Shown here one piece after another: positions 1-47,190 of a stretch of 64,000 bases of DNA. The translations under genes were made by a program, and so were the position numbers. Origin of the DNA: an uncultured Acidobacteriota bacterium (GTDB taxonomy: Bacteria; Acidobacteriota; JAQAZP01); assembly GCA_963836075.1 (NCBI GenBank), contig CAWIIB010000009.1, positions 416,001 to 480,000 of the forward strand, written 5' to 3'. Below the pieces are notes generated by a model. The model saw only the letters and a program-made list of their open reading frames with translations, had not been told where the DNA came from and searched no databases. The number at the start of each line of letters is the position of its first letter. Positions within the stretch are counted from its first letter, which is position 1.

Positions 1-1828
1 CAGCACCACCGTGTCGGCCTCCACCAGGACATCCTTGCTGTCCTTGGCCGTGACCACCACCCCGCTGGCGGTGATCTCCTTGACCTGGCAGAGGGTCACC
101 ATCTCCACGTTGGCCCCCCTGAGCTTGCTCATGTAGCGCCAGATGTAGGAGGGATTGACATCGCGGCCGAACTTCTTCTGCGGGCCGATCATGGTCACCG
201 TGTGCCCCCCCTTGTCGAGGAGGTAGAGCGCGGTGGAGATGGAAACGCCGGTGCCGCCGATGATCGCCACCCGCTTGCCCACGTCGACTTTCTTGTGCAT
301 CACGTCCAGCGCGGAAACCACGTTGGGCCCGTCACCACCCGGATAAGCCGAGGGGTCGGGGGCGGCGCCGGTGGCCAGCACCACGATGTCGGTGCCCAGT
401 TCCTCCAGCATCTCCTTTGTCGCCGCGGTGCCCAGCTTCAACTGGCCGCCGTGCTTCTTCAGCATGGTGACATAGTAGTTGACCAGCCGGCCGAACTCCT
501 CGTCGCCCCAGGGGCCGTTGGCCGCGGCCGAGAGCTGGCCGCCAGGCTGCTCCTCCCTCTCGTAGACCGTTACCTGGTGGCCCTTCTCGGCGGCGATCAC
601 CGCCGTCTGCAGGCCGGCCACCCCCGATCCCACCACGGCCACCGTTTTCGGCCTCTCCGTTTTTGCGAAGCCGTAGAAGCCGAACTCCGGCTCGGTCTCG
701 TGGCCCAGCGAGGGACGGACCATGCAGTTCAGCTCGGCGTCGCGGAAGAGGCGGGCCAGGCAGAGGTTGCAGGCCATGCAGGGGATGATCTCGTCCTGCC
801 GGTCCTCGAGGATTTTCTGCGGCAGCATCGGGTCGGCGATCATCGCGCGGCACGATTCCCAGAAGTCGAGCTTGCCCTCGCCGATGGCCTGGTCCGGCTG
901 GTCGGGGAGGAAGAGGCGGTAGGCCATGGCCACGGTGATCTGCTCGGGCAGGGCCTTCTTGTATTCCTCGGCGATGTAGAGCCACGAGCCCTGGGGGCAG
1001 TCGCGGCTGATCACCGACTTGGCCGACTCCTGCCAGCCGGCGGTGATGGAGAGGCAGTCCACCCCGGCGTCGACGATGATCTTGTTGGTGGTCATCGTGT
1101 CCTCGGGGGTGTTGCCGCCCCGGTCGTCCAGCAGCTCGCGGCCGCAGAGGCGGATGACGATGGGATAGTCGTCGCCCACCACCTTGCGGATGCCGGCCAC
1201 GATGCGGCGGGGGAACTCGGCCCGCTTCTCCGGCGAACCGCCGAACTCGTCGGTCCGCTTGTTGGTGTAGGGCGAGATGAAGTTGGAGAGCAGGTAGCCG
1301 ACGATGCCCGAGATCTCGATGGCGTCGAAGCCGGCCTCCTGGCAGCGGATGGCCGCGTCAACGTGCTCCTGGACGCACTGCTCGATGTCCTCGACGCGTC
1401 ATCTCCACCGGCTCGCGGAAGCGGGGCAGCCGCTGGGGCACCACCGAGGGGCCCACGGTGTAGTCGAGATGCACGCCGCCCACCCGGCCGCAGTGCATCA
1501 GCTGCAGCACCGACTTGGAGTCGTACTTGCGGATCACGTCGGCGATGCGCTTCAGGCCGGGGATGAACTGGTCGTCGTAGATCGCCATCATCCCCACGTA
1601 GCCCTTGCCCTCGCCGCGAGGGGTCGGTGAAGGCGCCCTGGGTGGTCACCATCCCGGCGCCGCCCCGGGCCTGGGCCTCCATGTAGGCCACCTCCTTGTC
1701 CGAGACAAGCCGTCGACGAAGTTGAAGTTGGTCTCGGTGGAGGCGTACTTGATGCGGTTCTTCACCTCCATCTTCCCCAGGTATCCCGGGGAGAAGACGT
1801 GGGGATATTTTTTTGCGCCCGGTAGCAT
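1..1828 (-). CDS. NADH:flavin oxidoreductase, Old Yellow Enzyme / 2,4-dienoyl-CoA reductase (FadH)-like, with FeS and FAD domains; runs off left edge; three apparent frameshifts (~1710, ~1620, ~1395)
   Basis: Stitched frames give KNRIKYAS..., YMEAQARGGAGMVTT, LQLMHCGR, AGFDAIEISGIVGYLLSNFISPYTNKRTDEFGGS, CMACNLC...NCMVRP and VAVVGSGVAGLQTA (Rossmann fold). Confidence 0.85.
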
Positions 1829-1861
1829 GAGAACCTCCTGCTATTGATAGTTATCATTTCC

Positions 1862-1939
1862 AGGGACGTACATGAATATATGAATATTTGGCGCCTGGCG
1901 CCTGATTCTCAAAATATTCATATATTCATGTACGTCCCT
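1862..1939. repeat. Perfect 28-bp inverted repeat with 22-nt loop (REP-like hairpin or operator)
   Basis: agggacgtacatgaatatatgaatattt (1862-1889) / aaatattcatatattcatgtacgtccct (1912-1939). Confidence 0.9.
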
Positions 1940-2513: not shown

Positions 2514-3716
2514 TCACTCCGTTCCAAACACAATCCCCGCGTCCCGCCAGGCCGCCACTTCATCTTCACCGGCGCCGGCCTCGGAGAGGATGCGCACCGT
2601 GTCCTGGCCATAGCGGGGCGGCGGCCCCAGAACCGCCGGCTCGTCGTCCCGCTGCACCGCCGACGGCTGCAGCTTCACCACGGTGCCGTCGGGGAGGGTG
2701 GTGCTCTTGAGGTGCGGCACCAGCCAGCCCGCCTCCGCCACCTGCGGGATGGTGCTCACCGCACAGGCCACGATGCCGGCCTGGTTCAGCGCCTCCACCA
2801 GGGTGGCAGTCTCCCAGCCTTTGGTCACCTCGGCCACTTCAAGGTGGATTTCCTCCCGCTGGGCCTTGCGCCCCTCGTTGGTGGACCGCACGTCGTTGGC
2901 CAGCTTCTTGAACGCATCGAGGCCGGTGAGCCGCTGCCACTGCACGTCATTGCCCACCGCCAGCAGCAGGTGGCCGTCTCTGGTGGGATAGACATTGACC
3001 GGCACGAACTGCCGGTGTTCGTTGCCCGCACGGTTGAAGCAGTCGGACGGCGCGCCCATCCCCACCATGGGCAGGGTGGTGATCAGCCAGCTGGCCGCCA
3101 CCCGGGCCATGGAGACGTCGATGCGCCGGGCCCCGGCCCCCTCGGCCTGTTCGGCCAGGGCGAGCATGGTCTGGGCAAAGACCTCGTCACCGGCCTTGAG
3201 GTCGGCCAGCGGGGCGCCAGTGAGCATCGGCGGGCCCTTGGGGTCGCCGGTGATCGCCATGTGGCCGGTGGCCGCCTGCACTGCCGGGTCGTAGCCCGGG
3301 GTCTTTGGCGCCTCGGGCCCGTAGGCAGAGATGCCGGCCCAGATGATCTTCGGGTTGTGCTTCTTCAGTGTCTCGAAGTCGATGCCCAGCTGCTCGTAGC
3401 GGGCGGGCAGGGTGTTGCAGCAGAAGACGTCCACCGGCAGCTCGCGCACCAGTCGGTGCAGCACCGCCCGGCCCTCCTCCGTCTTGAGGTTGATCGACAT
3501 CGCCTCCTTGCCCGCATTGGGCGCGACGAAGTAGGAGCAGCAGTCGGGGCCGCCCACCGGGTCGCCGATGTAGCGGTTGGGATCGCCGGGGGTGGTCTGG
3601 CCCGGCGCCGGTGTGGGCTCGAGCTTGATCACCCGCCAGCCGAGACAGGCGAAGCGCAGCGTGGCATAGGTCATGGAGAGCGCCTGCTCGAGGCTGAGCA
3701 CGGTTCTCGGTCTCAC
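2514..3716 (-). CDS. Family III CoA transferase (CaiB/BaiF)
   Basis: LGWRVIKLEP...GDPNR, NAGKEAMSINLK, ISAYG...PGYDPAVQAATG, ADLKAG motifs. Confidence 0.92.
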   Translation of the reverse strand: MRPRTVLSLEQALSMTYATLRFACLGWRVIKLEPTPAPGQTTPGDPNRYIGDPVGGPDCCSYFVAPNAGKEAMSINLKTEEGRAVLHRLVRELPVDVFCCNTLPARYEQLGIDFETLKKHNPKIIWAGISAYGPEAPKTPGYDPAVQAATGHMAITGDPKGPPMLTGAPLADLKAGDEVFAQTMLALAEQAEGAGARRIDVSMARVAASWLITTLPMVGMGAPSDCFNRAGNEHRQFVPVNVYPTRDGHLLLAVGNDVQWQRLTGLDAFKKLANDVRSTNEGRKAQREEIHLEVAEVTKGWETATLVEALNQAGIVACAVSTIPQVAEAGWLVPHLKSTTLPDGTVVKLQPSAVQRDDEPAVLGPPPRYGQDTVRILSEAGAGEDEVAAWRDAGIVFGTE

Positions 3717-6035
3717 GTCATCTCCTCCGGAAGGACCTCGCGGCCGGCGCGCAGCGAAAGCAGCACCCGCTCGGGGGTCAGCGGCAGCCGCCGGAAACGG
3801 ATGCCGGTGGCGTCGTGCACCGCGTTGGCCAGTGCCGGGGCGACGCAGATGGCCGGCGCTTCGCCGATCCCCTTGGCCCCGAACGGCCCCTCGGGCGCTC
3901 TGGTCTCGATGAAGTGCATCTCCACCTCGGGCATCTCCGGCGCGGTGATCAGCCGGTAATCGCGGAAGTCGGGGTTTTGCACCCGGCCCTCCTTCACCTG
4001 CAAATCTTCGGTGAGGCCGTAGCCCAGGCCCATGGACACACCACCCTCCACCTGGCCCTCGATGCCCAGGCGGTTGAGCACCCGGCCCACGTCGTGGGCC
4101 GCGGTGACCTTGAGCGGCCGCACCACCCCGGTCTCGGTGTCCACCTCCACCTCCACCACGTGGGTGCCGAAGGCGTAAGTCGGCGAGACGTTGCCCTTGA
4201 ATTCGCGGTTCTGCATCTGGCTGGGCGGCTCATAGTAGTGCTCGGTGATCACCGTCTCGAACTTGCTCCTGAAATGCAGCTTGCGGATCACCTTGCCCAG
4301 CCCGATCAGCACTTCCCCGTCCCCGGCCCGCACCACCTGGCCCCTGCGGATGTCGAGCTGGTCGGCGGGGAGTTCCAGCTGTTCGGCGGCGGCAGCGAGG
4401 AGTTTGGCCCGCGCTTTCTCCGCCGCGCCCCGGGCCGAGTTGCCGGCGACAAAGGTGGTGCGCGAGGCGTGGACCCCCACGTCCCAGGGCGTGATCGCGG
4501 TATCGTCGTTGATCACCCGGATCCGCTCCAGCGGCACTCCGAGCACTTCGGCGACGATCATCGCCAGCACCGTCTCCGAACCCTGGCCGATCTCCGACGA
4601 GCCGGTGATCAGGGTGAAGTTGGCGTAGTCGTCGGCTTTGAGGATCGTGCCGCAACCGTCCGAGTGGTAGATCTTGGCCCCGCCGCCCACGTGGACCATG
4701 GAGGCCATGCCGATGCCCCGCTTGAGGTGCGGCTCCGGCGCCTCCATCCGGCCGTGCTTTTCGGCCCAGCCGGCCGAGCCGGCCGCCGTCTCCAGGCACT
4801 CCTTCTGCCCGCAGGTCTCCAGATACATCCCCTGGCCGGTGGTCTCCCCCTGCTCCAGCGAGTTCTTCAGCCTGAGTTCCAGCGGATCGATGCCCAGTTC
4901 ATCGGCCAGCCGGTCGAGCTGGGACTCCACGGCAAAGGTGGCCTGCAGGTTGCCGTAGCCGCGCATCGAACCCGAGTAGGGGTTGTTGGTGTTCACCACC
5001 GTGGTGTGGAAGCGGACGCTGGGCACGCGGTAGAGCGAGGAAAAGCAGTGCATCATCACGAAGGGTGTGGTGGCCCCCCAGGAGGTGCGGCCGCCGTTGT
5101 CGTGGACCAGGTGCGCGTCACGAAATGTCAGGGTGCCGTCCTTCTTCGCGCCGCAACGCAGCCTGATCTCGGTGGGCTGGCGGGTGGGCGAGGCGATGAA
5201 CTCCTCATGGCGGTTGAACAGCAGGCGCACCGGCCGGCCGGAGGCCCGGGCCAGGTGCACCGCGATCGGCTCGAAGGGGTAGATGTCGAGCTTGGAACCG
5301 AAGCCGCCGCCAATGGTGGCCTGGACCACCCGGATCTTCTCCGGCGGCATCCTGACGATCCAGGCCATGTCCCGCTGGTAGAGGAAGGGGACCTGGGTCA
5401 GCGACCAGAGGGTCAGGTCGTCACGGGGCCCGAACTCGGCGATAATGCCCGAGGAGCCCATGCAGGCGTGGGTGACGAACTGCAGGTGGTAGGTGTCCTC
5501 CAGCACCACGTCGCTCTCCCGCTCGGCGGCCTCCACGTCGCCGTGGGCGTAGTCGTAGCGGAAGGGGACGTTGTCCGGCCGCTCCTCGTGAATCACCGGC
5601 GCCCCGGGCTTCAGCGCCTCGTGGGGGTCGAACACCGGCGGCAGGTCCTCGTATTCCACCTCGATCAGGCGGCAGGCCTCGCGGGCGATCTCCTCGGTCT
5701 CGGCGGCCACCGCGGCGATCTCGTCCCGCTGGCAGGTGACCTTGTCGCCCTTCAGGGCGTAGTTGTCCTTGCCGTGGCCGAAGGGGACGTTGATGATATC
5801 CTCCGCGGTGATCACCGCCTTGACCCCGGGCAGCGATTTCGCCCGCTCGGTTTTCACCGCAAGGATTTTCGCGTGGACCCGGTTCGTGCGCTTGATGGCG
5901 CCGTGCAGCATGCGCGGCCGCACCAGATCGTGGATGTAGACCGCGCGGCCGGTGGCACGCTCCGGCCCGTCCAGTTTTGGGGATACGTTGGCCGATCAGG
6001 CTCTCCCGGAGGATCTTCGGGGCGTTGTCGCTCAT
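3713..6035 (-). CDS. Xanthine dehydrogenase family molybdopterin-binding subunit (frameshift at ~5975)
   Basis: IGGGFGSK, MRGYGNLQ, EIGQGSET, GQVEGG, GAKGIGE motifs; N-terminus MSDNAPK...IGQRIPK joins LDGPERATG if one A of an A-run is removed. Confidence 0.9.
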
Positions 6036-6520
6036 GGCTCTACCCCCCTTTTAGCCAGCGATCGGATGGCATCGATGATCTTGACATAGCCGGTGCAGCG
6101 GCAGAGGTTCCCCTCCACCGAACGGCGGATCTGCTCCTCGGTGGGGTTGGGGTTCTCGCGGACAAAGGCATAGGCCCGCAGAACCATCGCCGGGGTGCAG
6201 AACCCGCACTGCACCGCACCCAGTTCCACAAAGGCGGCCACGGCCGGGTGCATTTCACCGTTCCGGCCCTGGAGCCCCTCGATGGTGGTCACCTCCCGGC
6301 CGTCGGCCTCGGCTGCCGGGTAGAGGCAGGAGTTCACCGCCACGCCGTCCACCAGCACGGTGCAGGCGCCGCAGTCCCCCTCCTCGCAGCTGGTCTTGGT
6401 CCCCTTGAGGTCCAAACGCTCGCGGAGCATGTCCACCAGCCGTTCCGCAGGCCGGACCGCCGTCTTCACCGGCTCGCCGTTGATGATGCAGCTGACTTCA
6501 AGCTCTACAGGCACGGGCAA
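6032..6520 (-). CDS. [2Fe-2S]-binding small subunit of the Mo hydroxylase (CoxS-like)
   Basis: GTKTSCEEGDCGACTV...NSC and QCGFCTP...GNLCRCTGY. Confidence 0.95.
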   Translation of the reverse strand: MPVPVELEVSCIINGEPVKTAVRPAERLVDMLRERLDLKGTKTSCEEGDCGACTVLVDGVAVNSCLYPAAEADGREVTTIEGLQGRNGEMHPAVAAFVELGAVQCGFCTPAMVLRAYAFVRENPNPTEEQIRRSVEGNLCRCTGYVKIIDAIRSLAKRGVEP

Positions 6521-7380
6521 GCCTCCTTACCAGCGACGCTGCCAGCTCGCGGCGATAGGCCGCGCTGCCGCGCACATCGGAGATCGGCGACACTTCCTGT
6601 CGCGCCGCTTCCGATGCCAGTTCCAGCGTTTCTTCATTCAGCAGTTGTCCATTGAGGGCTGCTTCGGTCTGCGGGCCGCGTATCGGCCGGTCGGCCAGCG
6701 CACCGAAAGCGATCCGCACCTCGCTCACCCGCTCCCCTTCCATCAGCAGGCCCATGCCGGCGGAAGCCGTGGCACAGACCATGGCCGGCCGGGTGCCCGG
6801 TTTCTGCGAGGCGAAGCGCATCCCGGCGGGCTGCGGGGGGATGACCACCGCGCTGATCAGCTCGTTGGTCTCCCGCACCGTCGAGCCGGGGCCGGTGAAG
6901 AAATCGGCCAGGGGAACCCGTCTCAGGTTCGGGCTGCTGTCCCCTCCGCAGGAAGCCAGCTCCACTTCGGCCTCGAGGATGAGCAGCGGCACGGCCGTGT
7001 CGGCGGCCGGCGAGGCGTTGGCCAGGTTGCCGCCCATGAGTGGCCACCGCCCTGATCTGGGGCGAGGCGATGAGGTCGGCGGCCGTGGCCAGCACCGGGC
7101 AGGTCTCGTTGAGCAGGGTATCGGCAGCCAGCTGGCGGAAGGTGGCCGCGCCGCCGATGCGGATCGTGTCGCCGTCCCGCTCGATCACGCCCAGCTCGGG
7201 AATGCGCTTGAGGCTCACCATCTCCCAGGACCCGGGCGGCATCTGACGCCTGTGGTCGCGGACCAGCAGGTCGGTCCCCCCGGCCACCGGCCAGAGCGGC
7301 ACCTCGGCCCCGGCCATCAGGGCCAGCGCTTCACGGAGAGACGCCGGCCGGTGGTAGTTGCGGCATTCGCTGGCACTCAA
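6498..7380 (-). CDS. FAD-binding medium subunit of the Mo hydroxylase (CoxM-like; frameshift at ~7040)
   Basis: VAGGTDL, IASPQIRAVAT + MGGNLANASPAAD, PISDVRGSAAYRR; no HcrB-type 4Fe-4S insert seen. Confidence 0.9.
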
Positions 7381-8996
7381 AACCTGATCGCCTCCTGGTA
7401 CCCGCCGAACACTTCTTTCAGTGCCCGGGTGATCTCGCCCACCGTGGCCATGGCCCGCACCGCGGCCATCACCGGGGGAACGAGGTTGTCGTTCGAACCG
7501 GCCGCCCGACGGATCTCCGCCAGAGCACCCTCCACCGCACCCGGGTCACGCAGGGTCCGAATGCGCGCGGTGCGCTGCACCAGCTTCTCCCCCTCGCCGG
7601 GGTCGTAGGGGTGGATCTCCACGTCGCGGGCCTCCTCCCCCTCGTCCATCACGAAGCGGTTGATCCCCACCTTGGGGATGACACCATCCTGGATGCCCTT
7701 CTCCCACTGGTAGGCCCGGCGGGCCACCGCGGCCTGCACGTCGCCGTCGGCAATGGCCTGCAGGATGCCCTTGCCCTGTTCCAGCTCCCGGACCATCTTT
7801 TCGATCCGCTCTTCCAGCTGGTTGGTGATCGTCTCCACGTAGTACGAGCCGGCCAGCGGGTCGACGGTGTCGCAGAGCCCCATCTCCTCCTGGAGGATCT
7901 GCATCGTGCGCAGGGAGATCCGCGCCGCCTTCTCGCTGGGGATGGTGTAGGCCTCGTCGTAGGAACAGAGGGCCATGGTCTGCGTCCCGGAAAGGGCGCT
8001 GATCAGGGCGTAGTATGCGCCGCGGACGATGTTGTTCTCCGGCTGCTGGATGGTCAGCCCGCCCCCGCCGCCGCCGGCGATCATCCGCAGCAGCATGGAG
8101 CGCGGGTTCTGCGCGCCGTAGTCCTCCTTGATCATCCGCGCCCAGAGACGCCGCCCGGCGCGGAACTTGGCGATCTGCTCGAAGAAGTTGCCGTGGATGT
8201 CGAAGTTGAAGGAGAGCCGCGGGGCGAACTCGTCGATGGTCATCCCCCGGGCCAGCACGTGGTCGATATAGGCCCGGGCGATGGCGAAGCCGTAGGCCAT
8301 CTCCTGCACCGGGTCGGCCCCCGACTCGCGGATGTGGTAGCCGCAGACCGAGACCGGGGAGTACTTGGGCATGTGCTCGGCGCACCAGGTGATGGTGTCA
8401 CCCACCAGGCGCACCGACGGCTCCACCGGGAAGACCCAGGTGCCGCGGCCGACGAACTCCTTGAGGATGTCGTTCTGGGCCGTGCCCCGCAGTTTGGTCA
8501 GGTCGTAGCCCCGTTTCTCGGCCAGGGCGAAGTACATCGCCATCAGGGTGATCGCCGCGCCGTTGATGGTCAGCGACACGGTGATCTTCTCCAGATCGAT
8601 GCCCTCGAAGGCTTCCTCCATGTCGGCCAGCGTGTCCACCGCCATCCCCACCCGGCCCACCTCGCCGGCGGCCATGGGATCGTCGCTGTCCAGCCCCACC
8701 TGGGTCGGCAGGTCAAAGGCCACGTTGAGGCCGGTGTTCCCCTGGGCGATGAGGTATTTGAAGCGCTGGTTGGTGTCGGCGGCCGACCCGAAGCCCGAAT
8801 ACTGGCGCATGGTCCAGGGCCGCTTGCGATACATTTCGGGGTGGATGCCCCGGGTGAAGGGATACTCGCCCGGCCGGCCGATGCTTCCCGCGCCGCCGCT
8901 GGCCTCCAGCTCTTCCGGGCCGTAGACCGGCTTGACCTCGATGCCCGATTCGAGAACCACGGGGGGGATGTCCTTTTTACTGTCGCTGTTGCTCAT
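7377..8996 (-). CDS. B12-dependent acyl-CoA mutase, substrate-binding subunit (methylmalonyl-CoA mutase family)
   Basis: PGEYPFTRG, WTMRQYSGFG, AFDLPTQ, QNDILKEF, GYHIRE, DPLAGSYYVE. Confidence 0.95.
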   Translation of the reverse strand: MSNSDSKKDIPPVVLESGIEVKPVYGPEELEASGGAGSIGRPGEYPFTRGIHPEMYRKRPWTMRQYSGFGSAADTNQRFKYLIAQGNTGLNVAFDLPTQVGLDSDDPMAAGEVGRVGMAVDTLADMEEAFEGIDLEKITVSLTINGAAITLMAMYFALAEKRGYDLTKLRGTAQNDILKEFVGRGTWVFPVEPSVRLVGDTITWCAEHMPKYSPVSVCGYHIRESGADPVQEMAYGFAIARAYIDHVLARGMTIDEFAPRLSFNFDIHGNFFEQIAKFRAGRRLWARMIKEDYGAQNPRSMLLRMIAGGGGGGLTIQQPENNIVRGAYYALISALSGTQTMALCSYDEAYTIPSEKAARISLRTMQILQEEMGLCDTVDPLAGSYYVETITNQLEERIEKMVRELEQGKGILQAIADGDVQAAVARRAYQWEKGIQDGVIPKVGINRFVMDEGEEARDVEIHPYDPGEGEKLVQRTARIRTLRDPGAVEGALAEIRRAAGSNDNLVPPVMAAVRAMATVGEITRALKEVFGGYQEAIRF

Positions 8997-38803: not shown

Positions 38804-38845
38804 AAAAATGGGGACTGGCACGCCTTGGCGCCTGTCCCCATTTTT
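38804..38845. repeat. REP-like hairpin / bidirectional terminator
   Basis: aaaaatggggactggcacgccttggcgcctgtccccattttt; near-identical inverted copy at ~42514. Confidence 0.75.
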
Positions 38846-38895
38846 ATTTAAGTGCCTTTCGGATCTTCTCCGGGGTGATTGCATCACCCCCGATT

Positions 38896-39288: not shown

Positions 39289-39515
39289 CGCCCGTCCCTT
39301 TCGTCCCTGACTGCCCGGGCCGGCGGCACGCCGGTGATGACGGCTTTGCGGCCGCGCAGGCGAAGTCTCAGTTCACGCGGGGATGGACGTTCCATCAGGC
39401 GCTCCACCTCGCCGAGGAGGTAGTCGGAGAGGGGCAGACCCTCGAGCGCCGCCCTGGCTTTGAGCAGGCGGTGCAGCTCGTCCGGCACGTTTCGAATTTG
39501 GATCATCTTGGACAT
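39285..39515 (-). CDS. FitA-like RHH antitoxin
   Basis: MSKMIQIRNVPDELHRLLKARAA...LSDYLL; upstream ttgaca...cacatgtg...tgtcaa palindromic region. Confidence 0.88.
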   Translation of the reverse strand: MSKMIQIRNVPDELHRLLKARAALEGLPLSDYLLGEVERLMERPSPRELRLRLRGRKAVITGVPPARAVRDERDGR

Positions 39516-39885
39516 GTTGACAACATATTCACATGTGATCCACATGTCAAGCGGAGGTCCTCAGGGACGACATCAGCCGGCCATTTTCTCCCCGGGAATT
39601 CCCGTGGGATGGCAGCCGGCTGGGCTGGAGAGGAAGGGGGCGGTGGCACAGCCGTGGCATACGGTCCGAAAGCGGGCAGGCAGGGTTGTATGCGCGTACC
39701 GCCAGGCAGGGAGATCCCCGCAATCGGTGCGATTTCGGACTTGCCAAATTAAACTATAAACCATAAATTTGTATGTGATCTATCAGATGCAGGCATTCTA
39801 ATCATCAAAAGATACTGTTCGTTGTTGCTCACTGCCATAAGGTGGCCTTGAATATCGATCCTGCCGCCGCAGGGAGGCCTCGTCA

Positions 39886-42477
39886 ATGGGTATACGATCA
39901 CGGTTGGGCATCTGCTTTCACCTGCTGGCGATGGCGCTTGCGTTGTCCACCTCGGCGGAGGCAAGGCTGTTCGATGCGGCGATCGCCTTACCGGTCGAAA
40001 GCCGAGCGTTTGCTGTCGATGACCTGGATGGGGACGGGATTCAGGATCTTGCGGTGTTCCGTGAATGGACATATGACGAGGAACTTGTCGGGATTTGTTT
40101 CGGCCGGGGCGACGGCACATTTCAATATCCCGTGGATTATTCCATCGGCGAAGCAGGGCCCATCTCTGGAACTTCGATGATCACCGATGACCTGGACCAG
40201 GACGGTGACTCTGATGTGGCCGTCGTGACATACCGCGTATACGACACGAGGAGCAATATCTGGGTGCTGCTGAACAACGGCGACGGCACTTTTGCCGTTG
40301 CCGGTCACTACCGGCTTTTCACTGAAGCCAGGATGGTGAAATCCCTCGACCTCGACGGCGACGGACATCGTGACCTTGCGTTGGCCCACTCGGATGGCGG
40401 TGCGTCGGGGCAGGAAGGGCGGCTGTCGGTCCTCTTTGGCCGGGGAGATGGTACTTTTAAGAAGGCCATAGCTTACGACCTCGATTTCGAAGCATTGAAC
40501 TTTGCCGTTGGCGATTTCAACGGTGACGGTGCACAGGACCTCGTGCTCAATGAGTTCCATAACGACATGATCATGGTGCTGCTGGGCAATGGCGACGGCA
40601 CATTCCAAGGCGGTGTCGAGTACCAGGTGGGTGATCATCCCTGGGGCGTGGCTGCCGGCGACCTGAACGCTGACGGCTGGACTGACCTGGTCGCGGCCAA
40701 TCGAAGTGGCGACACGGTTTCAGTGCTGATCGGGCTTGGGGACGGGAGTTTTCTACCCGCCGAACATATTCCTGTTGCCGAGAACCCGTGGTCCATCGAA
40801 GTCTTCGATATCGACAATGATCAGATACCGGACCTGATCACAACGTGTAGCCATGAAAGCGGTGGTGATCTTTCGTTTTTAAAGGGCGAGGGTGATGGTA
40901 CATTCCAGGAAGGTGTGCTGGTGGAAACCGGTAGTTCAAATATCTCCTTTTGCGTTGCGGACTGTGACGGCGACGGCAATCCGGATTTTGTTGTGGACAA
41001 CAATGTTTTTCTTGTCGGTGGAGACGTGTCTGTCATCCTGGGCCATGGTGACGGCACTTTCGCTACAGCGTCTTCCAACAATGCATTTCCGGGTCACTGT
41101 ACAGGCGATGTCGGTGACGTGAATGCCGACGGCAATCCCGACGTGGTCCTTCCGGCTGAAGACGTGGGCAAGGTAGATTACCAGATCATTGTTTTGCTGG
41201 GCAGGGGGGACGGGACATTCGGCAGCAAAGTCGGTTCCGTGGCCGGCAATGGGTTCAGTTCATTGGTCGTCGAAGATTTTAATCGAGACGGTTATTCCGA
41301 CATTGTTGCGTGCTTCAGGTACGATCCCTACCTAACGGTTCTGCTGGGCCAGCGCGACGGCCGAGTACAGGAGATCGCGGAAATCGAGATTCCTGACGAG
41401 CCGCTATCCCCGATCATCACCGATGATCTGGACGTTGACGGCAACTTCGATCTGATCGTGCGGACGTATTCCGATTACTTTGTACTCCTGGGCCATGGAG
41501 ACGGATCCTTTGAGCCGGCATCGGCGCTGGGGTTGGGTACATATAGGGGAACTTGCGATTTTGGCGACCTGAACCATGATGGAAACCCTGACCTGGTCCT
41601 GGTCAATCACAGTGGCGACAGCGTTTCGGTGATGATGGGGCACGGCGACGGCACGTTCGCCGATGAAGCGAACTACAGCGTGTTTGCTCCTGAATCCGTG
41701 GCCATCGGCGATCTGGATGAAGACGGGAACCCCGATCTGGCCGTGTCATGTGAATACACGACCCTGGGGTTCTTGGTTGGTAACGGAGACGGTTCGTTCC
41801 AGGACGCGGTGGAACTGGAATATCCCGACGTTGCGAACCCGGAGATGATCGATCACGTCGGTGATGTTGATCTTGATGGACACCTCGATCTGGTAATTCG
41901 CTGCTCCAATTGGGTCGCGGTTCTGCTGGGCGACGGGGACGGCTCGTTCCGGCCATTTGTATATGGCATAGAGAATAGTGACACTGTCGAGTCCATGGCC
42001 ATGATTGATCTGGATAATGACGATGATCTCGACCTGGTTGTTTCACGAGGATGTTCTTCCTGGAAGATCTCGGTGCTGATCAACAATACGATGAGCCGGA
42101 CCATCAACGGCGACTACACGATATCTCCGCTTGCCGGTACGCTGCCCTTCGAGACGAGCCACCAGGTCTACCTGAGAAACATGCTCCATGGCCGCGATGC
42201 GACACATACCCGCACGGCATCGGTGGCCATCGACGTCGAGATCGGCAGCGGCGCCTGGTTCAGCAACTGGCGGGCGGGGTACACCAATCTGTCGCCGAAC
42301 GAGGTCCTCTTCCGGAACTGGCCCAACCAGTTCCCTGCCGGCCCCACCCTTGTGGGCACGAACAGTTTCCATTTCCGGGTGATGGACACCACGCCGGCGC
42401 CATACAACCAGCCGCCCTACCCGCCGTCCGGGGATGCGGCGACACGGGTGAGGACGGTTATCGCGACAATACCCTGA
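39886..42477 (+). CDS. Secreted FG-GAP/VCBS repeat protein with C-terminal PAPYNQPPY domain
   Basis: Signal peptide ending AEA; many DxDGDGxxDL / LGxGDGTF repeats; C-terminal domain at 42100-42477. Confidence 0.9.
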   Translation: MGIRSRLGICFHLLAMALALSTSAEARLFDAAIALPVESRAFAVDDLDGDGIQDLAVFREWTYDEELVGICFGRGDGTFQYPVDYSIGEAGPISGTSMITDDLDQDGDSDVAVVTYRVYDTRSNIWVLLNNGDGTFAVAGHYRLFTEARMVKSLDLDGDGHRDLALAHSDGGASGQEGRLSVLFGRGDGTFKKAIAYDLDFEALNFAVGDFNGDGAQDLVLNEFHNDMIMVLLGNGDGTFQGGVEYQVGDHPWGVAAGDLNADGWTDLVAANRSGDTVSVLIGLGDGSFLPAEHIPVAENPWSIEVFDIDNDQIPDLITTCSHESGGDLSFLKGEGDGTFQEGVLVETGSSNISFCVADCDGDGNPDFVVDNNVFLVGGDVSVILGHGDGTFATASSNNAFPGHCTGDVGDVNADGNPDVVLPAEDVGKVDYQIIVLLGRGDGTFGSKVGSVAGNGFSSLVVEDFNRDGYSDIVACFRYDPYLTVLLGQRDGRVQEIAEIEIPDEPLSPIITDDLDVDGNFDLIVRTYSDYFVLLGHGDGSFEPASALGLGTYRGTCDFGDLNHDGNPDLVLVNHSGDSVSVMMGHGDGTFADEANYSVFAPESVAIGDLDEDGNPDLAVSCEYTTLGFLVGNGDGSFQDAVELEYPDVANPEMIDHVGDVDLDGHLDLVIRCSNWVAVLLGDGDGSFRPFVYGIENSDTVESMAMIDLDNDDDLDLVVSRGCSSWKISVLINNTMSRTINGDYTISPLAGTLPFETSHQVYLRNMLHGRDATHTRTASVAIDVEIGSGAWFSNWRAGYTNLSPNEVLFRNWPNQFPAGPTLVGTNSFHFRVMDTTPAPYNQPPYPPSGDAATRVRTVIATIP

Positions 42478-42513
42478 AGGCTGTGGGAGGGGCAGGCACC
42501 TGGCTGCTAGGAT

Positions 42514-42598
42514 AAAAATGGGGACGGGCACCAAGGCATGCCAGTCCCCATTTTTTCCCGTTCGCATCAAGAGGTGACAGGGTGCCAGTCACCTTTTC
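42514..42598. repeat. Two REP-like hairpins
   Basis: aaaatggggacgggcaccaaggcatgccagtccccatttt, then aggtgacagggtgccagtcacct. Confidence 0.7.
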
Positions 42599-42700
42599 CT
42601 TCTTCTTCTCCCTCAGCGACTTCAGTATCTTCTCCGGGGTGATCGGCAGGTCCTTGATCCAGACGCCGGTGGCTCCCGCGATGGCGTGAGCCACCGACCC
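42590..42700 (-). pseudogene. C-terminal remnant of a xanthine dehydrogenase-family Mo subunit
   Basis: VAHAIAGATGVWIKDLPITPEKILKSL, cf. LANAVHDATGIRFRRLPLTPERVL in 3713..6035. Confidence 0.7.
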
Positions 42701-42760
42701 AGGATGGGCAGGTGTTAGACGTGCCTTCCGGGTGACGATTTCGTCAACCGCGGTTTCCAG

Positions 42761-42976
42761 CTACTTGGCGATGGTGAGTCCCCGCCCCTTTGGTTCCGGG
42801 ACGGGCCTACCGTTCTGATTGGCGGTATCGATCCAGGGCGCTACGGCCTTTTTGGCATTCCCCAAAGCTTCCTCCTGGGTCTCACCATGAGCCGCACAAC
42901 CGGGAAGTTCGGGCACTTCCGCCACGAAACAGCGGTCCTCGATACTCCAGAAGATGTTGATCTCGTACTTGTTCAT
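42761..42976 (-). CDS. hicB: HicB-family antitoxin
   Basis: YEINIFWS.ED..FVAEVPELPGCAAHGETQEEAL. Confidence 0.92.
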   Translation of the reverse strand: MNKYEINIFWSIEDRCFVAEVPELPGCAAHGETQEEALGNAKKAVAPWIDTANQNGRPVPEPKGRGLTIAK

Positions 42977-43233
42977 CGGGGATCCTCGTCGAGGTTGTAC
43001 TTGAGGATGACCATTCGAACCTGCTTGACCTGATACGGTTTAGCGTTACCGCCGGTTGCCTGAAGATTGATCAGTTCCTCGATGCCTTCTCTCCAGAAGA
43101 TGTGGTGGCTGCCCCTGCTCCTGGAACGAAAACCAAGGCGTTTCAGGAGGGAGCAGATGTCTTTGAATCTTATGGACGAGTCGGTCCGCTCCGGCCGCCG
43201 GGGCCGGCAGATGCTCTTCGTCTCCTGGCCCAT
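42973..43233 (-). CDS. hicA: HicA-family toxin
   Basis: IRFKDICSLLKRLGF...RGSHHIF...AKPYQVKQV. Confidence 0.88.
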   Translation of the reverse strand: MGQETKSICRPRRPERTDSSIRFKDICSLLKRLGFRSRSRGSHHIFWREGIEELINLQATGGNAKPYQVKQVRMVILKYNLDEDPR

Positions 43234-43336
43234 GCAGGCCAGGCTGAGCAAGATCAGGGCCGGATGGCGGAAGTGTCAATCTGCCGGGTTTTCTGACCGC
43301 AGTTGGAAACCGGGGTTGTCGTCGATGATATACGTT

Positions 43337-45073
43337 TTACGCCCCCCGCAGCCGCTCCGTCTCTTCCTCGTCAAGCTGGAGGGTCTTCTCGTCCAGCACC
43401 ACGCCGTAGGCTTCGCGGGCCTGGTCGAGGGAGATGATGCCGTCGCGTACCTCCTCGGCCACCCTGGCTGCCGGGCGCTTCTTCGGGTCGCCCCAGCCAC
43501 CACCGCCGCCGGCTTCCTGCACATACAGCGTGCCGGGGGGCACCCCGCGCACCAGGTCCTTGGTGGTGCAGGTGTAGACCTCGCCGTCCGGCTCGTGCAG
43601 CTCGATGTAATTGAGCGTGCCCTCGCCGCCGCCAAAGAGGCCGAAGGCCGGCTCGATGTCGCCGTCGCCAAAGGTCACCAGCTGCACCGGCCCGCCGCCG
43701 AAGCGGATGCGGGTCTCCACGCCGAGGCCGCCGCGCCACTGGCCGGGGCCGGCCGAGTCGGTGAGCAGCTCGTGCTTCTCCAGCAGGTGCGGCGTCTGCT
43801 GCTCGAACATCTCGTAGTCCTGGTCCAGCACGCCGCCCGAGGCGTCGATCATGCCGATGTGGTCGTAGCCGTCGGTGCCCTTCATCGCCCCCGAGCCGCC
43901 CTTGAGGCCCATGAAGCAGATGTCGACGTAGGTGTCGTTCTTCCGGGTGTCGAGACCGGTGGTCAGCGAACAGAGCAGCTGGTTCCAGCCGGCGGTGACC
44001 CGGTCGGGGATCACCGGGGCCAGGGCGCGCATGATGGCGTCGGCGTTGGGCGGGCAGAGGTGGTTGCCGAAGGTGGTGGCCGCCGGGTACGCGGCATTGA
44101 GGATCGTCCCCTCGGGGATGATTATGGAGATCGGCTCCACCATCCCCTCGTTGTGCGGGATGTCGGGGTTGACCATCTGCAGGAAGGTGAGGATGGTGGC
44201 CGAGGCCGAGGAGGTGTAGGTGCCGTTGACGAAGCCGTCGGTCTGGGGGTCGGTGCCCGAATAGTCGAAGACGATGGAGCGGTCCTTGACCTCGATGGTG
44301 ACCTTGATCTGGTAGGTGCTGCCCGGGGTTCGGCCGTCGAAGTAAACGGTGGCCTCGCCGGAGTATTTGCCGTTGGGGATCCGCTCGATCTCGGCTTCCA
44401 TCATCTTCTTTGTGGAGGCGAAGATGTGCTGTTTGTGGGCCTCGAAGGTCTCCAGGCCGTATTTCTGCACCAGTTTCTGCAGCCGCCGCTCACCCACCAC
44501 GCAGGCGCCGATCTCGGCCCGCATGTCCTCCTCGACGATGTCGAGACGGATGTTGGCGAAGATCAGGTTCCAGACGTCCTTGCGCAGCCACCCCTTCTCG
44601 TAGACCTTCACCGGCGGGATTCTGAGCGCCTCCTGCCAGACCTCGGTGGCGTTGGGGTTGTAGCCGCCTCGTACCGCGCCGCCGATGTCGGCCTGGTGGC
44701 CCTTGGTGGCCGCCCAGCCGATCAGCGTCTCCTCGAGAAAGATCGGCTTGAACACCGCCACGTCGTTGTTCTGGTTGCCGAGGGAGAAGACGTCGTTGTG
44801 CATGATCACGTCACCGGGATAGATCTCGTCGCCGTAGTAATCGATGATGTACTTGCAGACCGGGGCCAGGGAGAAGGAGAGGATCGGCAGGTTCTCGGTC
44901 TGCTCCAGCATCCGGCCCTCGGCATCGTAGAGGCCGGTGACAAAGTCCCGGGCCTCGCAGAGGATCGGCGAACGGGTGGTCTTGGTCATCGAAACCGACA
45001 TCTCGTCGGTGATCGACTTGAAGGCCCGGGTGAGCACCGAGGCGAGGATGGGGTCGATGTTAGCTTCAGCCAT
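43337..45073 (-). CDS. Hydantoinase B / 5-oxoprolinase family subunit
   Basis: SPILCEARDF, PGDVIMHND, GHQADIGG, DSAGPGQWRGG, AGGGGGWGDP. Confidence 0.95.
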   Translation of the reverse strand: MAEANIDPILASVLTRAFKSITDEMSVSMTKTTRSPILCEARDFVTGLYDAEGRMLEQTENLPILSFSLAPVCKYIIDYYGDEIYPGDVIMHNDVFSLGNQNNDVAVFKPIFLEETLIGWAATKGHQADIGGAVRGGYNPNATEVWQEALRIPPVKVYEKGWLRKDVWNLIFANIRLDIVEEDMRAEIGACVVGERRLQKLVQKYGLETFEAHKQHIFASTKKMMEAEIERIPNGKYSGEATVYFDGRTPGSTYQIKVTIEVKDRSIVFDYSGTDPQTDGFVNGTYTSSASATILTFLQMVNPDIPHNEGMVEPISIIIPEGTILNAAYPAATTFGNHLCPPNADAIMRALAPVIPDRVTAGWNQLLCSLTTGLDTRKNDTYVDICFMGLKGGSGAMKGTDGYDHIGMIDASGGVLDQDYEMFEQQTPHLLEKHELLTDSAGPGQWRGGLGVETRIRFGGGPVQLVTFGDGDIEPAFGLFGGGEGTLNYIELHEPDGEVYTCTTKDLVRGVPPGTLYVQEAGGGGGWGDPKKRPAARVAEEVRDGIISLDQAREAYGVVLDEKTLQLDEEETERLRGA

Positions 45074-45081
45074 GACGACTC

Positions 45082-47190
45082 CTACTCCAGCAGGTTGCGC
45101 ACCGTCTCCGGCAGCGCGTCGATTCGGTCGCGGAGATAGGTGACAAATGCACCGTGCAGGTCCACCACCGCGTCGAAGTCCCCGGAGATGAAGAGCGTGG
45201 TGTTCACCTGTTCCACCAGCGCCGGCCCGGCGATGCGGTTGCCCGGCTCGAGGGTGTGGCCGTCGTAGACCGGGATCTCGGCAAACTCGCCGGTCTCGGG
45301 GACGTAGGCCCGCCGCGTGCCCTTTAGCGAGGCCGAGGAGTCGGCCCCGGCCGCTTCGCCGGCGATGGAGCGGGGCTTGTCGGTGATCCCCACCGCCGAC
45401 AGCCTGACATTGATCAGCTCCAGCGGCGTGCCCTCCTCTTCCAGCGAGTAGCCGTATAGCCGGTCATGCTCAGCGTGGAAGCGGGAGGCGATGGCTTTCA
45501 TCCTCGGGGACTGGGTCACTTCGTCAAGTTTGGCCGGCAGGGTTACCTCGTGATACTGCTTGAGGTAGCGCAGGTCGAGGGCCGGCTCCAGTCTGACCCG
45601 GTCGGCGGGGATCCCCTCCCCTGCCAGTACCCGCTGCCCCTCGGCCGCCATCTCGTCCACCAGTGAAACCAGGCGGTCCGGGTCCAGCTGGTCCCAGCGG
45701 GAGATCAGGCTGCGCACGTAGTCGTGTTTGAGGTCGGTGGCCAGCATCCCGGCGGCGCAGAAGATCGACGACTCCCGGGGAACGAGGAAGAAGGGGATCT
45801 CCAGCTCGCGGCAGATCAGACAGGCGTGGAGCGGCCCGGCCCCGCCGGCCACCACCACCGGGAAGTCCCGCGGGTCGTGGCCCCGCTTGATGGTCACTTC
45901 GCGGACGCCGTTGGCCATGTTGTTGTTGATCACCCGGTAGACCCCGGCAGCCGCGTCCTCCTCGCTGCCCCCCAGCGGGCCGGAGAGGGAGGACATGGCC
46001 TGGCGGGCCGAGTCGATGTTCAGCGGCAGCTTGCCCCCGGCAAAGAAGTCCGGGTCGAGGTAGCCCAGCAGCAGGTCGGCATCGGTGCAGGTGGGCCGGT
46101 CCCCGCCGCGGCCGTAACAGGCCGGGCCGGGGTCTGCTCCGGCGCTCTGTGGGCCCACCCGCAGCAGACCGCCCTCGTCGAGCCAGCCCACCGAGCCGCC
46201 CCCGGCGCCGATGGTGACGATGCCCAGCATGGGCAGGGCCAGGCGGCGGCGGTCGATCTCGCCGTCGGTGACCGTGATCGGTTTGCCGTCCAGCACCAGC
46301 GCGGTGTCGAAGGAGGTGCCGCCCATGTCCACGGTGATCGAGTCGGCCAGGCCGTGCACCGCCACGTGGGCCGCCCCGGCGCCCGGTCCGGCGGCCGGTC
46401 CGGAGAGCAGGGTCATGGCCGCCAGGTCGCGGGCCGCCTCGGGCGTGGTCACCCCGCCGTTGGACTGCATGATCAGCAGCACACCGCGGAAGCCCTGCTC
46501 ACCAAGCCGCCGCAGCAGGGCCTCGATGTAGCGTTTGAGGATCGGCCCGGCATAGGCGTTGAGCACGGTGGTACTCACCCGGTCATAGAAGCGGACCGCC
46601 GGCAGGACCCTGGTCGATACCGAGAGGTAGGCGCCGGGGTGCTCCTCGGCGGCGATCTCGGCCGCCCGCTGTTCGTGGGCCGGGTTGGCAAAGGCGTTCA
46701 TCAGGCAGACGGCCAGCGCCTCCACCCCGTCGTCCCTGAGCAGCCGCACCGCGGCGGTGAGCCCCTCCACGTCCAGCTCGGTGAGCACCTCTCCCTGGGG
46801 CCCCACCCGCCCCTTCACCGGCAGGCGCCGGCGCCGGGGCACCAGCGGCTCCACATTGGTGTAGCGGTTGTTGTATTGCTCCTCGCGGATGCCGCGGCGC
46901 ATTTCCAGCGCGTCACGCACGCCCTCGGTGGTGATCAGCCCGGTACGGGCACCGTTGCCGGTGAGCACGGCGTTGGTGGTCACCGTGGTGCCGTGGACAA
47001 TGATGTCGATGGTGGGAACGAACGCTTCCAGGGTCATCCCCCGGGCTCCGGCGATCTCCTCGAGACCGTTAATCAGCCCGATGGAGGGGTCCTCGGGTGT
47101 GGAGAGCACCTTGAAAATGGCCGAACCGTCCCCCTCCTGCACCAGGAAATCGGTGAAGGTGCCTCCCACGTCGATACCGATTCGCAGCAT
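45082..47190 (-). CDS. Hydantoinase A / 5-oxoprolinase family ATP-binding subunit
   Basis: GIDVGGTFTD, HGTTVTTNA, LSGPAAG, DMGGTSFD, IGAGGGS, GPQSAGADPGPACY. Confidence 0.95.
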   Translation of the reverse strand: MLRIGIDVGGTFTDFLVQEGDGSAIFKVLSTPEDPSIGLINGLEEIAGARGMTLEAFVPTIDIIVHGTTVTTNAVLTGNGARTGLITTEGVRDALEMRRGIREEQYNNRYTNVEPLVPRRRRLPVKGRVGPQGEVLTELDVEGLTAAVRLLRDDGVEALAVCLMNAFANPAHEQRAAEIAAEEHPGAYLSVSTRVLPAVRFYDRVSTTVLNAYAGPILKRYIEALLRRLGEQGFRGVLLIMQSNGGVTTPEAARDLAAMTLLSGPAAGPGAGAAHVAVHGLADSITVDMGGTSFDTALVLDGKPITVTDGEIDRRRLALPMLGIVTIGAGGGSVGWLDEGGLLRVGPQSAGADPGPACYGRGGDRPTCTDADLLLGYLDPDFFAGGKLPLNIDSARQAMSSLSGPLGGSEEDAAAGVYRVINNNMANGVREVTIKRGHDPRDFPVVVAGGAGPLHACLICRELEIPFFLVPRESSIFCAAGMLATDLKHDYVRSLISRWDQLDPDRLVSLVDEMAAEGQRVLAGEGIPADRVRLEPALDLRYLKQYHEVTLPAKLDEVTQSPRMKAIASRFHAEHDRLYGYSLEEEGTPLELINVRLSAVGITDKPRSIAGEAAGADSSASLKGTRRAYVPETGEFAEIPVYDGHTLEPGNRIAGPALVEQVNTTLFISGDFDAVVDLHGAFVTYLRDRIDALPETVRNLLE

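Follow-up and report, generated by a model that had tools for sequence, protein, structure and literature searches.

A 64,000-nt stretch of the 6.2-Mb genome of an uncultured Acidobacteriota bacterium (genome G000, positions C9:416001-480000; hereafter the window) carries a gene cluster which, judging from sequence comparisons, most probably represents the acidobacterial counterpart of the operon for indoleacetate degradation (iaa) of Aromatoleum, split by serial insertion and still in use as two units. Gene calls, in which open reading frames (ORFs) were filtered by the G+C content of third codon positions (GC3) and then scanned against Pfam (48 ORFs) and NCBIfam (17 ORFs), confirmed the gene list of an earlier sequence-only reading of this DNA: all genes that it had listed are present on the minus strand, in the transcription order that it had given.

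The upstream block consists of two intact genes, encoding a hydantoinase A-type protein (HyuA; IaaC-like; 45082-47190) and a hydantoinase B-type protein (HyuB; IaaE-like; 43337-45073; Pfam, 5e-148). The distance from the hyuB stop codon to the start of the next iaa-like gene is 32,524 nt, and the cluster is thus not one contiguous operon. The downstream block opens with an acyl-CoA dehydrogenase of the IaaF (benzylmalonyl-CoA dehydrogenase) subclass (9673-10812), followed by the small, B12-binding subunit (IaaG-like; 9253-9660) and the large subunit (IaaH-like; 7377-8996; MM_CoA_mutase, 1e-188) of a B12-dependent acyl-CoA mutase, the FAD (6498-7380, in two overlapping frames), 2Fe-2S (6032-6520) and Mo-cofactor (3713-5923) subunits of a xanthine-dehydrogenase-family hydroxylase, which occupy the iaaI, iaaJ and iaaK positions, a family III CoA-transferase (IaaL-like; 2514-3716; CoA_transf_3, 8e-64), a small hydrophobic membrane ORF of 154 aa (1944-2408; GC3 0.82) and a flavin reductase of the OYE/FadH type (Oxidored_FMN and Pyr_redox_2 domains; 1-1828). 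The 154-aa ORF, for which Pfam gives a weak ATP-synt_C match, is kept in two other genomes of the same genus (72% in G001, 65% in G002). The C-terminal part of the reductase fits the FadH/OYE profiles from about position 201, and its N-terminal part is spread over three frames. The genes of the operon as originally described therefore stand, and its end at position 1 does not: the reductase gene runs about 134 nt past the left edge of the window and is followed outside it by a ferredoxin gene (C9:415608-415847), and the 154-aa ORF had gone unlisted.

Orthology with the iaa operon of Aromatoleum

Nine genes of the window, iaaC-E-F-G-H-I-J-K-L, recur in the same order and with identities of 47%-74% in a locus (L026) of an Aromatoleum metagenome-assembled genome (MAG), one of 80 genome loci matched by alignment of 35 dehydrogenase relatives. 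The individual values are 59% for HyuA, 74% for HyuB, 54% for the dehydrogenase, 53%-55% for the B12-binding subunit, 64% for the large mutase subunit, 35%-50% for the FAD subunit, 47% for the 2Fe-2S subunit, 59% for the Mo subunit and 53% for the transferase. In the Aromatoleum locus, genes for a GntR regulator, a thiolase-like protein and a CoA ligase (AMP-ligase) are followed by the nine shared genes, which lie back to back, and by a gene for a periplasmic binding protein. Occurrence of the same nine genes in the same order in the Aromatoleum MAG and in other loci indicates that their arrangement in the window is not due to chance, and the similarity to the iaa gene order, which the sequence-only reading had proposed, holds for all nine. 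The layout of L026 fits the published locus, iaaABCDEFGHIJKLMPQR, as outlined in PMC9613470. In the passages on the individual proteins, PMC8360864 describes IaaB as the ligase, IaaL as the transferase, IaaGH as the mutase, IaaF as the dehydrogenase and IaaM as the binding protein, and IaaCE appears as a hydantoinase-like hydrolase in the part of PMC8453981 that treats it.

When the 14 proteins of L026 were compared reciprocally with G000 by tblastn, window genes proved to be the best match in the genome for eight of them, namely, IaaC, E, F, G, H, I, K and L. HyuA and HyuB are the only G000 matches to IaaC and IaaE, with a single match in the genome for HyuB, and the identities of the window gene and of the next G000 match are 54% and 38% for IaaF, 64% and 40% for IaaH, 59% and 33% for IaaK, and 53% and 30% for IaaL. 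The IaaJ position is a tie in this test, the window gene being 47% and a paralogue elsewhere in G000 50% identical.

The C-terminal region of the dehydrogenase (...FTLFGGGTSEIL...) contains GGG in place of YEG; according to PMC8360864, GGG is common to all IaaF orthologues, and the site is occupied by YEG or a close variant in other acyl-CoA dehydrogenases. GGG is present in all 121 sequences of a set comprising the window dehydrogenase and its 120 best databank matches. Across the 80 genome loci, the motif reads GGG in 12, YEG or GEG in 65 and is unreadable in three; all 10 loci with a dehydrogenase at least 50% identical to that of the window have GGG, and nine of the 10 also encode the B12 subunit. 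In a quick maximum-likelihood tree of 86 rows, with support from the Shimodaira-Hasegawa-like approximate likelihood ratio test (SH-aLRT), the window dehydrogenase belongs to a clade of 12 rows that includes Aromatoleum and is uniformly GGG (SH-aLRT 99), and five G000 paralogues fall elsewhere. Within this clade, the nearest rows are labelled Planctomycetota or Actinomycetota and the window protein lies outside the eight proteobacterial rows. The reciprocal search, the motif and the tree all group the proteins with Iaa rather than with non-Iaa clades, as the sequence-only reading had proposed. Besides the GGG-type IaaF, the window encodes a two-subunit IaaGH mutase adjoining it, IaaL and IaaCE; all subunits of the three-subunit Mo hydroxylase are present as well, the FAD subunit being frameshifted in the G000 assembly and intact in G001 and G002.

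The suspicion that the host is not a betaproteobacterium was well founded: it is non-proteobacterial, and the named relatives of the neighbouring RibBA (49152-50486) are mostly Acidobacteriota or Vicinamibacteria. A second RibBA, 83% identical (P0130), is encoded on the 2.30-Mb contig C1; it either is a paralogue or reflects a mixture of strains in the assembly, for which the contamination estimate is 4.6%.

With the iaa loci of Aromatoleum aromaticum EbN1 and Aromatoleum evansii, the window shares the gene order, the GGG dehydrogenase, the split B12 mutase and the family III CoA-transferase. It differs from them in being split by 32.5 kb between iaaE and iaaF, in having no iaaA, iaaB, iaaM or regulator in the cluster, in the added membrane ORF, OYE/FadH-type reductase and ferredoxin, in a C-terminal extension of about 15 residues in HyuB and in its acidobacterial host. 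The same two-subunit HyuA/HyuB build is known from the caprolactamase CapAB, as described in the relevant part of PMC8453981, and CapA and CapB are the best NCBIfam models for the window proteins; however, the scores amount to 659 and 402 bits against cut-offs of 1000 bits each, and the proteins are far closer to those at the iaaC and iaaE positions of Aromatoleum. As all NCBIfam matches lie below their cut-offs, an identity as caprolactamase or xanthine dehydrogenase was set aside in favour of Iaa orthology.

The correspondence is incomplete, and the missing parts weigh against it. No G000 orthologue was found for the CoA ligase IaaB, the best matches (29%-30%) being generic AMP-ligases, none of them near the cluster; the binding protein IaaM, the GntR regulator and a 116-aa ORF of L026 have no match in G000 at 1e-10; and the only match to the thiolase-like IaaA, at 40%, lies elsewhere in G000, where it adjoins a 3-hydroxyacyl-CoA dehydrogenase gene at C9:1.72 Mb. 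The search for further pathway genes that had been suggested thus came out negative for the ligase and, for the thiolase, yielded this match outside the cluster. A CoA ligase is also missing from the flanks of some other iaa-like loci (L025, L029). Furthermore, the roles of iaaIJK as the Mo enzyme and of iaaA as the thiolase are presumptive, being assigned from the alphabetical gene order.

The junction downstream of hyuB

The two blocks are adjacent in relatives. HyuB is encoded directly upstream of the dehydrogenase in nine of the 10 genome loci with a dehydrogenase at least 50% identical (69%-75% in eight of them and 29% in a divergent one). Among 401 sampled genomes of the phylum, six encode an IaaF-type dehydrogenase (E<=1e-110), three from this genus and three from outside it (G044, of another acidobacterial family, f10, and G156 and G204), and two of the latter three, G156 and G204, have an unbroken HyuA-HyuB-dehydrogenase-B12-mutase series. 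Metagenomes contributed 80 loci with HyuB 71%-94% identical to that of the window, 58 of which are usable in that they extend 1300 nt or more downstream. Of these 58, 30 have the start of the dehydrogenase gene no more than 300 nt from HyuB and four have it at 324-497 nt, and in 24 it is not downstream. These counts make the Aromatoleum order the commonest, not a universal one. The two blocks are thus far from never being adjacent, and the proposal of one ancestral operon, interrupted by an accessory tract, is upheld.

The 24 metagenome loci without an IaaF-type dehydrogenase downstream of HyuB tell against this ancestry: the dehydrogenase is upstream or divergent in five of them, a weak CoA-transferase match is all that is seen in three, and in 16 the available sequence contains no further iaa gene. 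Likewise, the genome G011 encodes HyuAB 73% identical to those of the window and has no IaaF orthologue; like the 16 metagenome loci, it implies that HyuAB of this type can stand alone. In addition, the closest dehydrogenase among the genome loci (66%), from a Planctomycetota MAG (L024) and the tenth of the loci with at least 50% identity, follows a gene resembling those for polyunsaturated fatty acid synthases. In this locus (L024 3016-9993), the GGG dehydrogenase comes directly after a 2325-aa PfaC-like protein with KS, CLF and four FabA domains, and the contig stops 200 nt past the dehydrogenase; by its sequence context, it hints that the IaaF-like GGG subclass may also be used outside iaa-type clusters. 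A further cluster, from another acidobacterium (G016:C20:52000-68000), was rejected as a relative and assigned to a different pathway, its dehydrogenase having GAG rather than GGG and no B12 mutase being encoded. It comprises an ABC transporter, HyuB-HyuA, a Mo-hydroxylase, an isochorismatase, a second HyuB/HyuA, a CoA-transferase, the GAG-motif dehydrogenase, a MaoC hydratase, a short-chain dehydrogenase/reductase and a luciferase-like oxygenase.

The tract that separates the blocks in the window contains five relics of the hyuB 3' end, located by repeat finding and sensitive blastn and tblastn searches, all on the hyuB strand (minus) and hence direct repeats. Starting from hyuB, these are c33k (33200-33382), in which aa 544-577 (94%) are joined to aa 256-284 (100%); c31k (31601-31779), with aa 543-578 and 76 nt of the downstream flank (82% over 181 nt); c20k (20373-20522), with aa ~518-567 (84% over 57 nt); c19k (19416-19511), with aa 521-552 (76% over 99 nt); and c16k (16597-16674), with aa 553-578 by tblastn (84% over 45 nt by blastn). 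The c33k relic represents a longer copy that has lost an internal part at a 6-nt microhomology, and c19k and c16k, which abut in gene coordinates, are complementary halves of one relic with a 2.7-kb kinase-TPR segment between them. Identity of the relics to the live hyuB tends to be lower with distance from it, and when the last 320 nt of the hyuB region were compared with the complete genome, hyuB coding matches turned up only in the tract. This confinement of same-strand relics to the tract indicates serial insertion at the hyuB 3' end. Every relic is a 5'-truncated copy that reaches the stop codon and, where preserved, the old downstream flank, and the intact gene is always upstream.

The relics delimit a mosaic of unlike segments. 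The accessory module next to hyuB (33383-43336) encodes a second Ser/Thr kinase, a second VapBC pair (38896-39545), an FG-GAP protein and further ORFs, and the module at 20523-31600 an extracytoplasmic function (ECF) sigma factor, a possible anti-sigma factor, a 1330-aa TPR-CHAT protein and beta-propeller proteins. A VapBC-type pair consisting of a MazE-fold antitoxin and a PIN protein (19556-20199, minus) sits exactly between c20k and c19k. Further from hyuB lie the Ser/Thr kinase-TPR gene (16653-19145, minus), common to G001; genes for a HEAT-repeat protein and a radical SAM/SPASM enzyme (12792-16597, plus), which are missing at the same place in G001 and, with c16k at their edge, may represent a peptide- or cofactor-maturation module; and, as the innermost part, a sulfatase gene (11107-12555, minus), also common to G001. 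No relic is found next to the dehydrogenase in G000, that is, in the innermost segment made up of the sulfatase gene and a 294-nt spacer. The tract also encodes an SPFH protein, and parts of it, including part of 20523-31600, have a G+C content of 0.55-0.60 compared with 0.63-0.70 in the iaa blocks.

The same pattern recurs in the genus and in a second family. In G001, the dehydrogenase-to-reductase block occupies one contig and has the same kinase-TPR and sulfatase genes ahead of it; the tract of this genome is without the HEAT/radical-SAM pair, has an extra 420-aa ORF and, apart from the kinase, the sulfatase and the iaa blocks, differs in content from that of G000. HyuA and HyuB of G001 are encoded on a separate contig and are followed by a 1-kb insert encoding a DUF6036 nucleotidyltransferase, after which comes a relic of up to ~730 nt (aa ~338-580, 96% to its own hyuB). 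The 30 nt past this relic match the sequence downstream of the intact hyuB of G000, and homology past the intact hyuB of G001 ends at the stop codon. A second relic (aa ~447-580, 95%) extends across the contig end. In G044, an intact hyuB lies 15.2 kb upstream of a dehydrogenase-mutase-transferase-hydroxylase block on the same strand, and between hyuB and the dehydrogenase are three direct relics, 86%-90% identical in nucleotide sequence to the gene of that genome, one of them at a distance of 270 nt from the dehydrogenase. A tyrosine integrase gene with an internal stop lies in the segment that the first relic bounds, about 2 kb from the hyuB end. G002 has the dehydrogenase-to-transferase block and a hyuB relic starting from ~aa 319.

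We propose that the ancestral operon, iaaC-E-F-G-H-I-J-K-L, would have been unbroken and that DNA would have been inserted repeatedly at the 3' end of hyuB (iaaE), the incoming DNA bringing, or recombining through, a copy of that end. Each event would leave an intact hyuB and displace a 5'-truncated copy of the end downstream, the outcome being the 32.5-kb mosaic with its genes for kinases, a sigma factor, toxin-antitoxin pairs and secreted repeat proteins. Known genomic islands insert at the 3' ends of genes and supply a replacement end, for example, those in tRNA and tmRNA genes, and e14 and phage 21 in icd of E. coli. The window resembles such gene-end islands, of the e14/phage 21 type, in the intact target, the foreign DNA, the truncated copies of the end in the same orientation, the tandem units, the toxin-antitoxin genes in the inserts and, in G044, the integrase next to the target. 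It differs in having no integrase left, in the variable 5' ends of the relics and in relic lengths of up to ~730 nt (G001); in addition, the target here is a gene of a catabolic operon, so that the events cut it off from the partner genes that follow it. Integrative islands that later lost their integrases are favoured by the toxin-antitoxin cassettes and by the integrase of G044, and we give this reading somewhat better than even chances. The position bounded by relics is taken by VapBC in G000, and the G001 insert next to hyuB encodes the DUF6036 nucleotidyltransferase.

Site-specific integration faces several counterarguments. The families PF00589, PF00239 and PF00665 (tyrosine integrase, serine recombinase and rve transposase) have no match in the window. 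The relic 5' ends, at codons 256, 518-521 and 543-544 in G000 and ~338 and ~447 in G001, define no single attachment point, and an alignment of 14 gene ends and relics revealed no common attachment (att) core. Because no recombinase is present in the window, the relic starts differ and a core is not shared, homology-anchored illegitimate recombination is a less likely alternative. Neither the other genome loci nor the 80 metagenome loci yielded any relics, and the short hyuB matches in L027 and L033 are pieces of cut or frameshifted full genes; the metagenome part of this result also speaks against recurrent insertion. Integrase probes gave no tblastn match in the 80 metagenome loci, which says little, given the insensitivity of the probes. 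The absence of a recombinase gene and the variable boundaries would equally suit an array of relics that arose with no mobile elements at all, by tandem duplication of the hyuB end and its flank, deletions and homologous gene replacement with relatives; the internal deletion of c33k at a microhomology and the tandem paralogous genes in the G001 tract point the same way. Nevertheless, the tract genes are mutually unrelated and differ between G000 and G001, parts of the tract are lower in G+C, toxin-antitoxin cassettes are present, and the G044 integrase lies beside hyuB within a relic-bounded segment, so that we regard this explanation as rather unlikely.

Several other features of the tract and its surroundings deserve mention. 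PADLOC analysis of 23 tract proteins detected nothing beyond generic matches to kinases, radical-SAM enzymes and repeats, and the tract was rejected as a defence island. Two 44-nt GC-rich sequences (38804-38847 and 42512-42555), 93% complementary to each other, were considered as terminal inverted repeats and discarded as such, each being a hairpin that looks like a terminator; with A/T runs on both sides, the two hairpins look, from their sequence, like bidirectional terminators on either side of the FG-GAP gene and the second VapBC pair. A C-terminal domain of ~120 aa (41%-58% identity) is shared by different secreted repeat proteins (21569-22498, 28310-29992 and 39886-42477) and also occurs in G001 and to the left of the window (L013 6431-11391, L014 640-2163 and L023 ~2050-2400); it has no Pfam match and may serve in sorting or anchoring. 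The intergenic stretch downstream of hyuB (43240-43322) has two 76% matches 1.5 Mb away (C9:1964867-1964946 and C9:1966770-1966853) and may be a small dispersed repeat. On the other side of the iaa genes, positions 50717-61392 (G+C 0.70-0.73) encode a B12-binding radical SAM protein, an FG-GAP protein, two PMT_2 glycosyltransferases, a polysaccharide flippase-like protein and a large sulfatase-domain protein, an envelope glycan cluster unrelated to the iaa genes.

Selection and frameshifts

The ratio of nonsynonymous to synonymous substitution rates (dN/dS) between G000 and G001 is 0.08-0.39 across all 12 comparisons of iaa-block genes, with values of 0.08-0.16 for the B12 subunit, the mutase, the dehydrogenase, HyuB (0.14), HyuA (0.16) and the Mo subunit, and of 0.20-0.39 for the reductase, the FeS subunit, the transferase, the parts of the FAD subunit and the membrane ORF (0.29). 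Such low values imply that both blocks have been under purifying selection since the split, which predates both species. The split operon would work as two units, the downstream block probably being transcribed from a new promoter in the conserved spacer before iaaF. This 294-nt spacer (10813-11106, minus) is kept in G001, to which window positions 9261-11098 align at 89%, and it holds a sigma-70-like promoter at 11094-11066, a match to the consensus only.

Continued function is called into question by frameshifts in two genes and by a missing one. The FAD subunit gene has one extra base near position 7039, and of its two ORFs one covers profile positions 4-108 and the other positions 107-169 and the C-terminal domain; in the alignment, the gene is in one frame in both G001 and G002. 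The reductase gene has three single-base indels relative to G001 (~1707, ~1617 and ~1398; one base missing and two extra), which are the three gaps in 1608 aligned nucleotides, the G001 copy being intact at 654 aa. In neither gene do the frameshifts fall in homopolymer runs. G002, moreover, has no HyuA at E<=1e-20, although its assembly is fragmented and loss of the gene is thus not established.

Taken with the activating enzyme missing from the cluster, these observations would suit a decaying remnant, in which the pathway lost its function after the split and the genes are turning into pseudogenes. The frameshifts were checked in Logan contigs of public runs (four runs from three studies). 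Contigs of the four runs are free of the reductase indels wherever they cover them; they also carry substitutions, which marks them as sequences of related strains. For X1, the best-matching run, a low-depth contig (~2.3 of a depth of 6.3) shares two of the three reductase indels with the window, which lends decay some support, and an X2 contig over 6996-7232 has a single gap that does not settle the frame of the FAD subunit. Decay is, however, hard to reconcile with low dN/dS for every gene of both blocks, the frameshifted ones included, with intact copies of both genes in G001 and with the run contigs that lack the reductase indels. Other split genes in G000, at C9:1800409-1806791 (L105 4409-10791), where a 4-hydroxybenzoyl-CoA-reductase-like Mo enzyme and a thiolase are each found in two overlapping frames, fit consensus errors of a long-contig assembly. 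On balance, we lean towards assembly consensus errors rather than very recent decay as the source of the frameshifts, and consider a decaying remnant improbable.

Proposed pathway and its variable parts

In the pathway that we propose for the two units, the Mo-hydroxylase (iaaIJK positions) would oxidize C2 of the indole ring, and the ATP-dependent HyuAB (IaaCE) would open the resulting lactam to a (2-aminophenyl)succinyl compound. The IaaL-like transferase would then move or install CoA, the IaaGH-like B12 mutase would rearrange the product to (2-aminobenzyl)malonyl-CoA, and the GGG IaaF-like dehydrogenase would oxidize and decarboxylate it to 2-aminocinnamoyl-CoA, with beta-oxidation and ring reduction encoded elsewhere in the genome. 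A row of genes at C9:1829729-1837534 (L106 9729-17534), for an AOR-type protein, a small ORF, an HdrD-like CCG protein, a large HdrA-like flavoprotein and an MvhD-like protein, has a layout that we take to resemble the class II benzoyl-CoA reductase BamBCDEF. A class I benzoyl-CoA reductase was considered for a PF06050 match (C9:1.726 Mb) and discarded, the match lying below the subunit B cut-offs and looking like a 2-hydroxyacyl-CoA dehydratase with its activase.

Two weaknesses of this scheme count against it: the hydroxylase and hydantoinase steps are assigned presumptively, from gene order, and indoleacetate as the substrate is suggested by the 47%-74% identity to the Aromatoleum proteins only. 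The same enzyme logic could serve a different lactam-forming N-heteroaromatic or arylsuccinate-type acid, for example, another 3-substituted indole or oxindole, or a tryptophan-derived CoA ester made elsewhere. Such a substrate would be in keeping with the missing IaaB ligase and IaaM binding protein, the limited identity, the branching of the dehydrogenase with Planctomycetota and Actinomycetota rows outside the proteobacterial group, the lack of any NCBIfam equivalog above cut-off in the 17 ORFs and the turnover of medium-chain alkylmalonyl-CoAs by IaaF at low rates, which is mentioned in PMC8360864. Nonetheless, the gene order of Aromatoleum is preserved for all nine genes, the dehydrogenase retains GGG, and indolepyruvate:ferredoxin oxidoreductase-like genes precede the cluster in acidobacterial and metagenomic relatives; we therefore think a substrate other than indoleacetate unlikely. 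The latter genes lie directly upstream of HyuA in G156, G204 and two metagenome loci (L132 and L147), and G011 has a fused version together with an aminotransferase. The best G000 match to these genes is 37% identical (C9:2300638-2302997). Indolepyruvate:ferredoxin oxidoreductases of this type make indoleacetyl-CoA from the transamination product of tryptophan, and their linkage to the cluster in relatives points to entry from tryptophan via indoleacetyl-CoA.

The presence of an added reductase, noted in the sequence-only reading, is borne out, but the gene is not an addition specific to this host, since other iaa-like clusters have it too. In G204, counterparts of the reductase (58%) and of the ferredoxin (72%) are encoded at the head of the same operon, related reductases are encoded right after HyuB in L134, L145 and L146, and a distant one is encoded upstream in L132; no homologue was found within 10 kb in the 80 genome loci. 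Recurrence in G204, L134, L145 and L146 marks the reductase as a recurrent non-proteobacterial accessory rather than a peculiarity of G000. Its relatives in NCBIfam, FadH, enoate reductases and BaiCD, belong to a family that reduces activated C=C bonds, and the simplest guess from this affiliation is that it probably acts on the enoyl-CoA (cinnamoyl-type) product. PMC8360864, in the part that concerns the electron acceptor, states that IaaF used neither the electron-transferring flavoprotein nor artificial dyes and leaves the route of anoxic re-oxidation open. We see a slim chance that the reductase and ferredoxin might be the redox partner of the IaaF-type dehydrogenase, either as the electron acceptor or by using reduction of 2-aminocinnamoyl-CoA as a sink; if true, this would bear on how IaaF is re-oxidized without oxygen.

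Searches of literature listings and abstracts for the pathway together with Acidobacteria and related terms returned no paper that places it in this phylum; PMC8360864, where it touches on distribution, gives sulfate reducers, Rhodopseudomonas, Ferroglobus and Thermoplasmatales as carriers of iaa operons. The cluster is thus a known pathway in a new host, with a somewhat different build and an unusual insertion history that recurs in a second family. It places an oxygen-independent pathway for indoleacetate derived from auxin or tryptophan in sediment Acidobacteriota and identifies its variable parts, namely, the ligase, which is replaced or absent, the indolepyruvate oxidoreductase, which is linked in relatives, and the reductase and ferredoxin, which are added. 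Invasion of the same junction in two acidobacterial families makes the hyuB end a candidate insertion hotspot, where the series of decaying end copies records the order and rough age of the insertions. The split itself offers a natural example of an operon on which purifying selection has continued to act after two of its genes were parted by repeated insertions, and cluster-based pathway prediction will miss such split versions.

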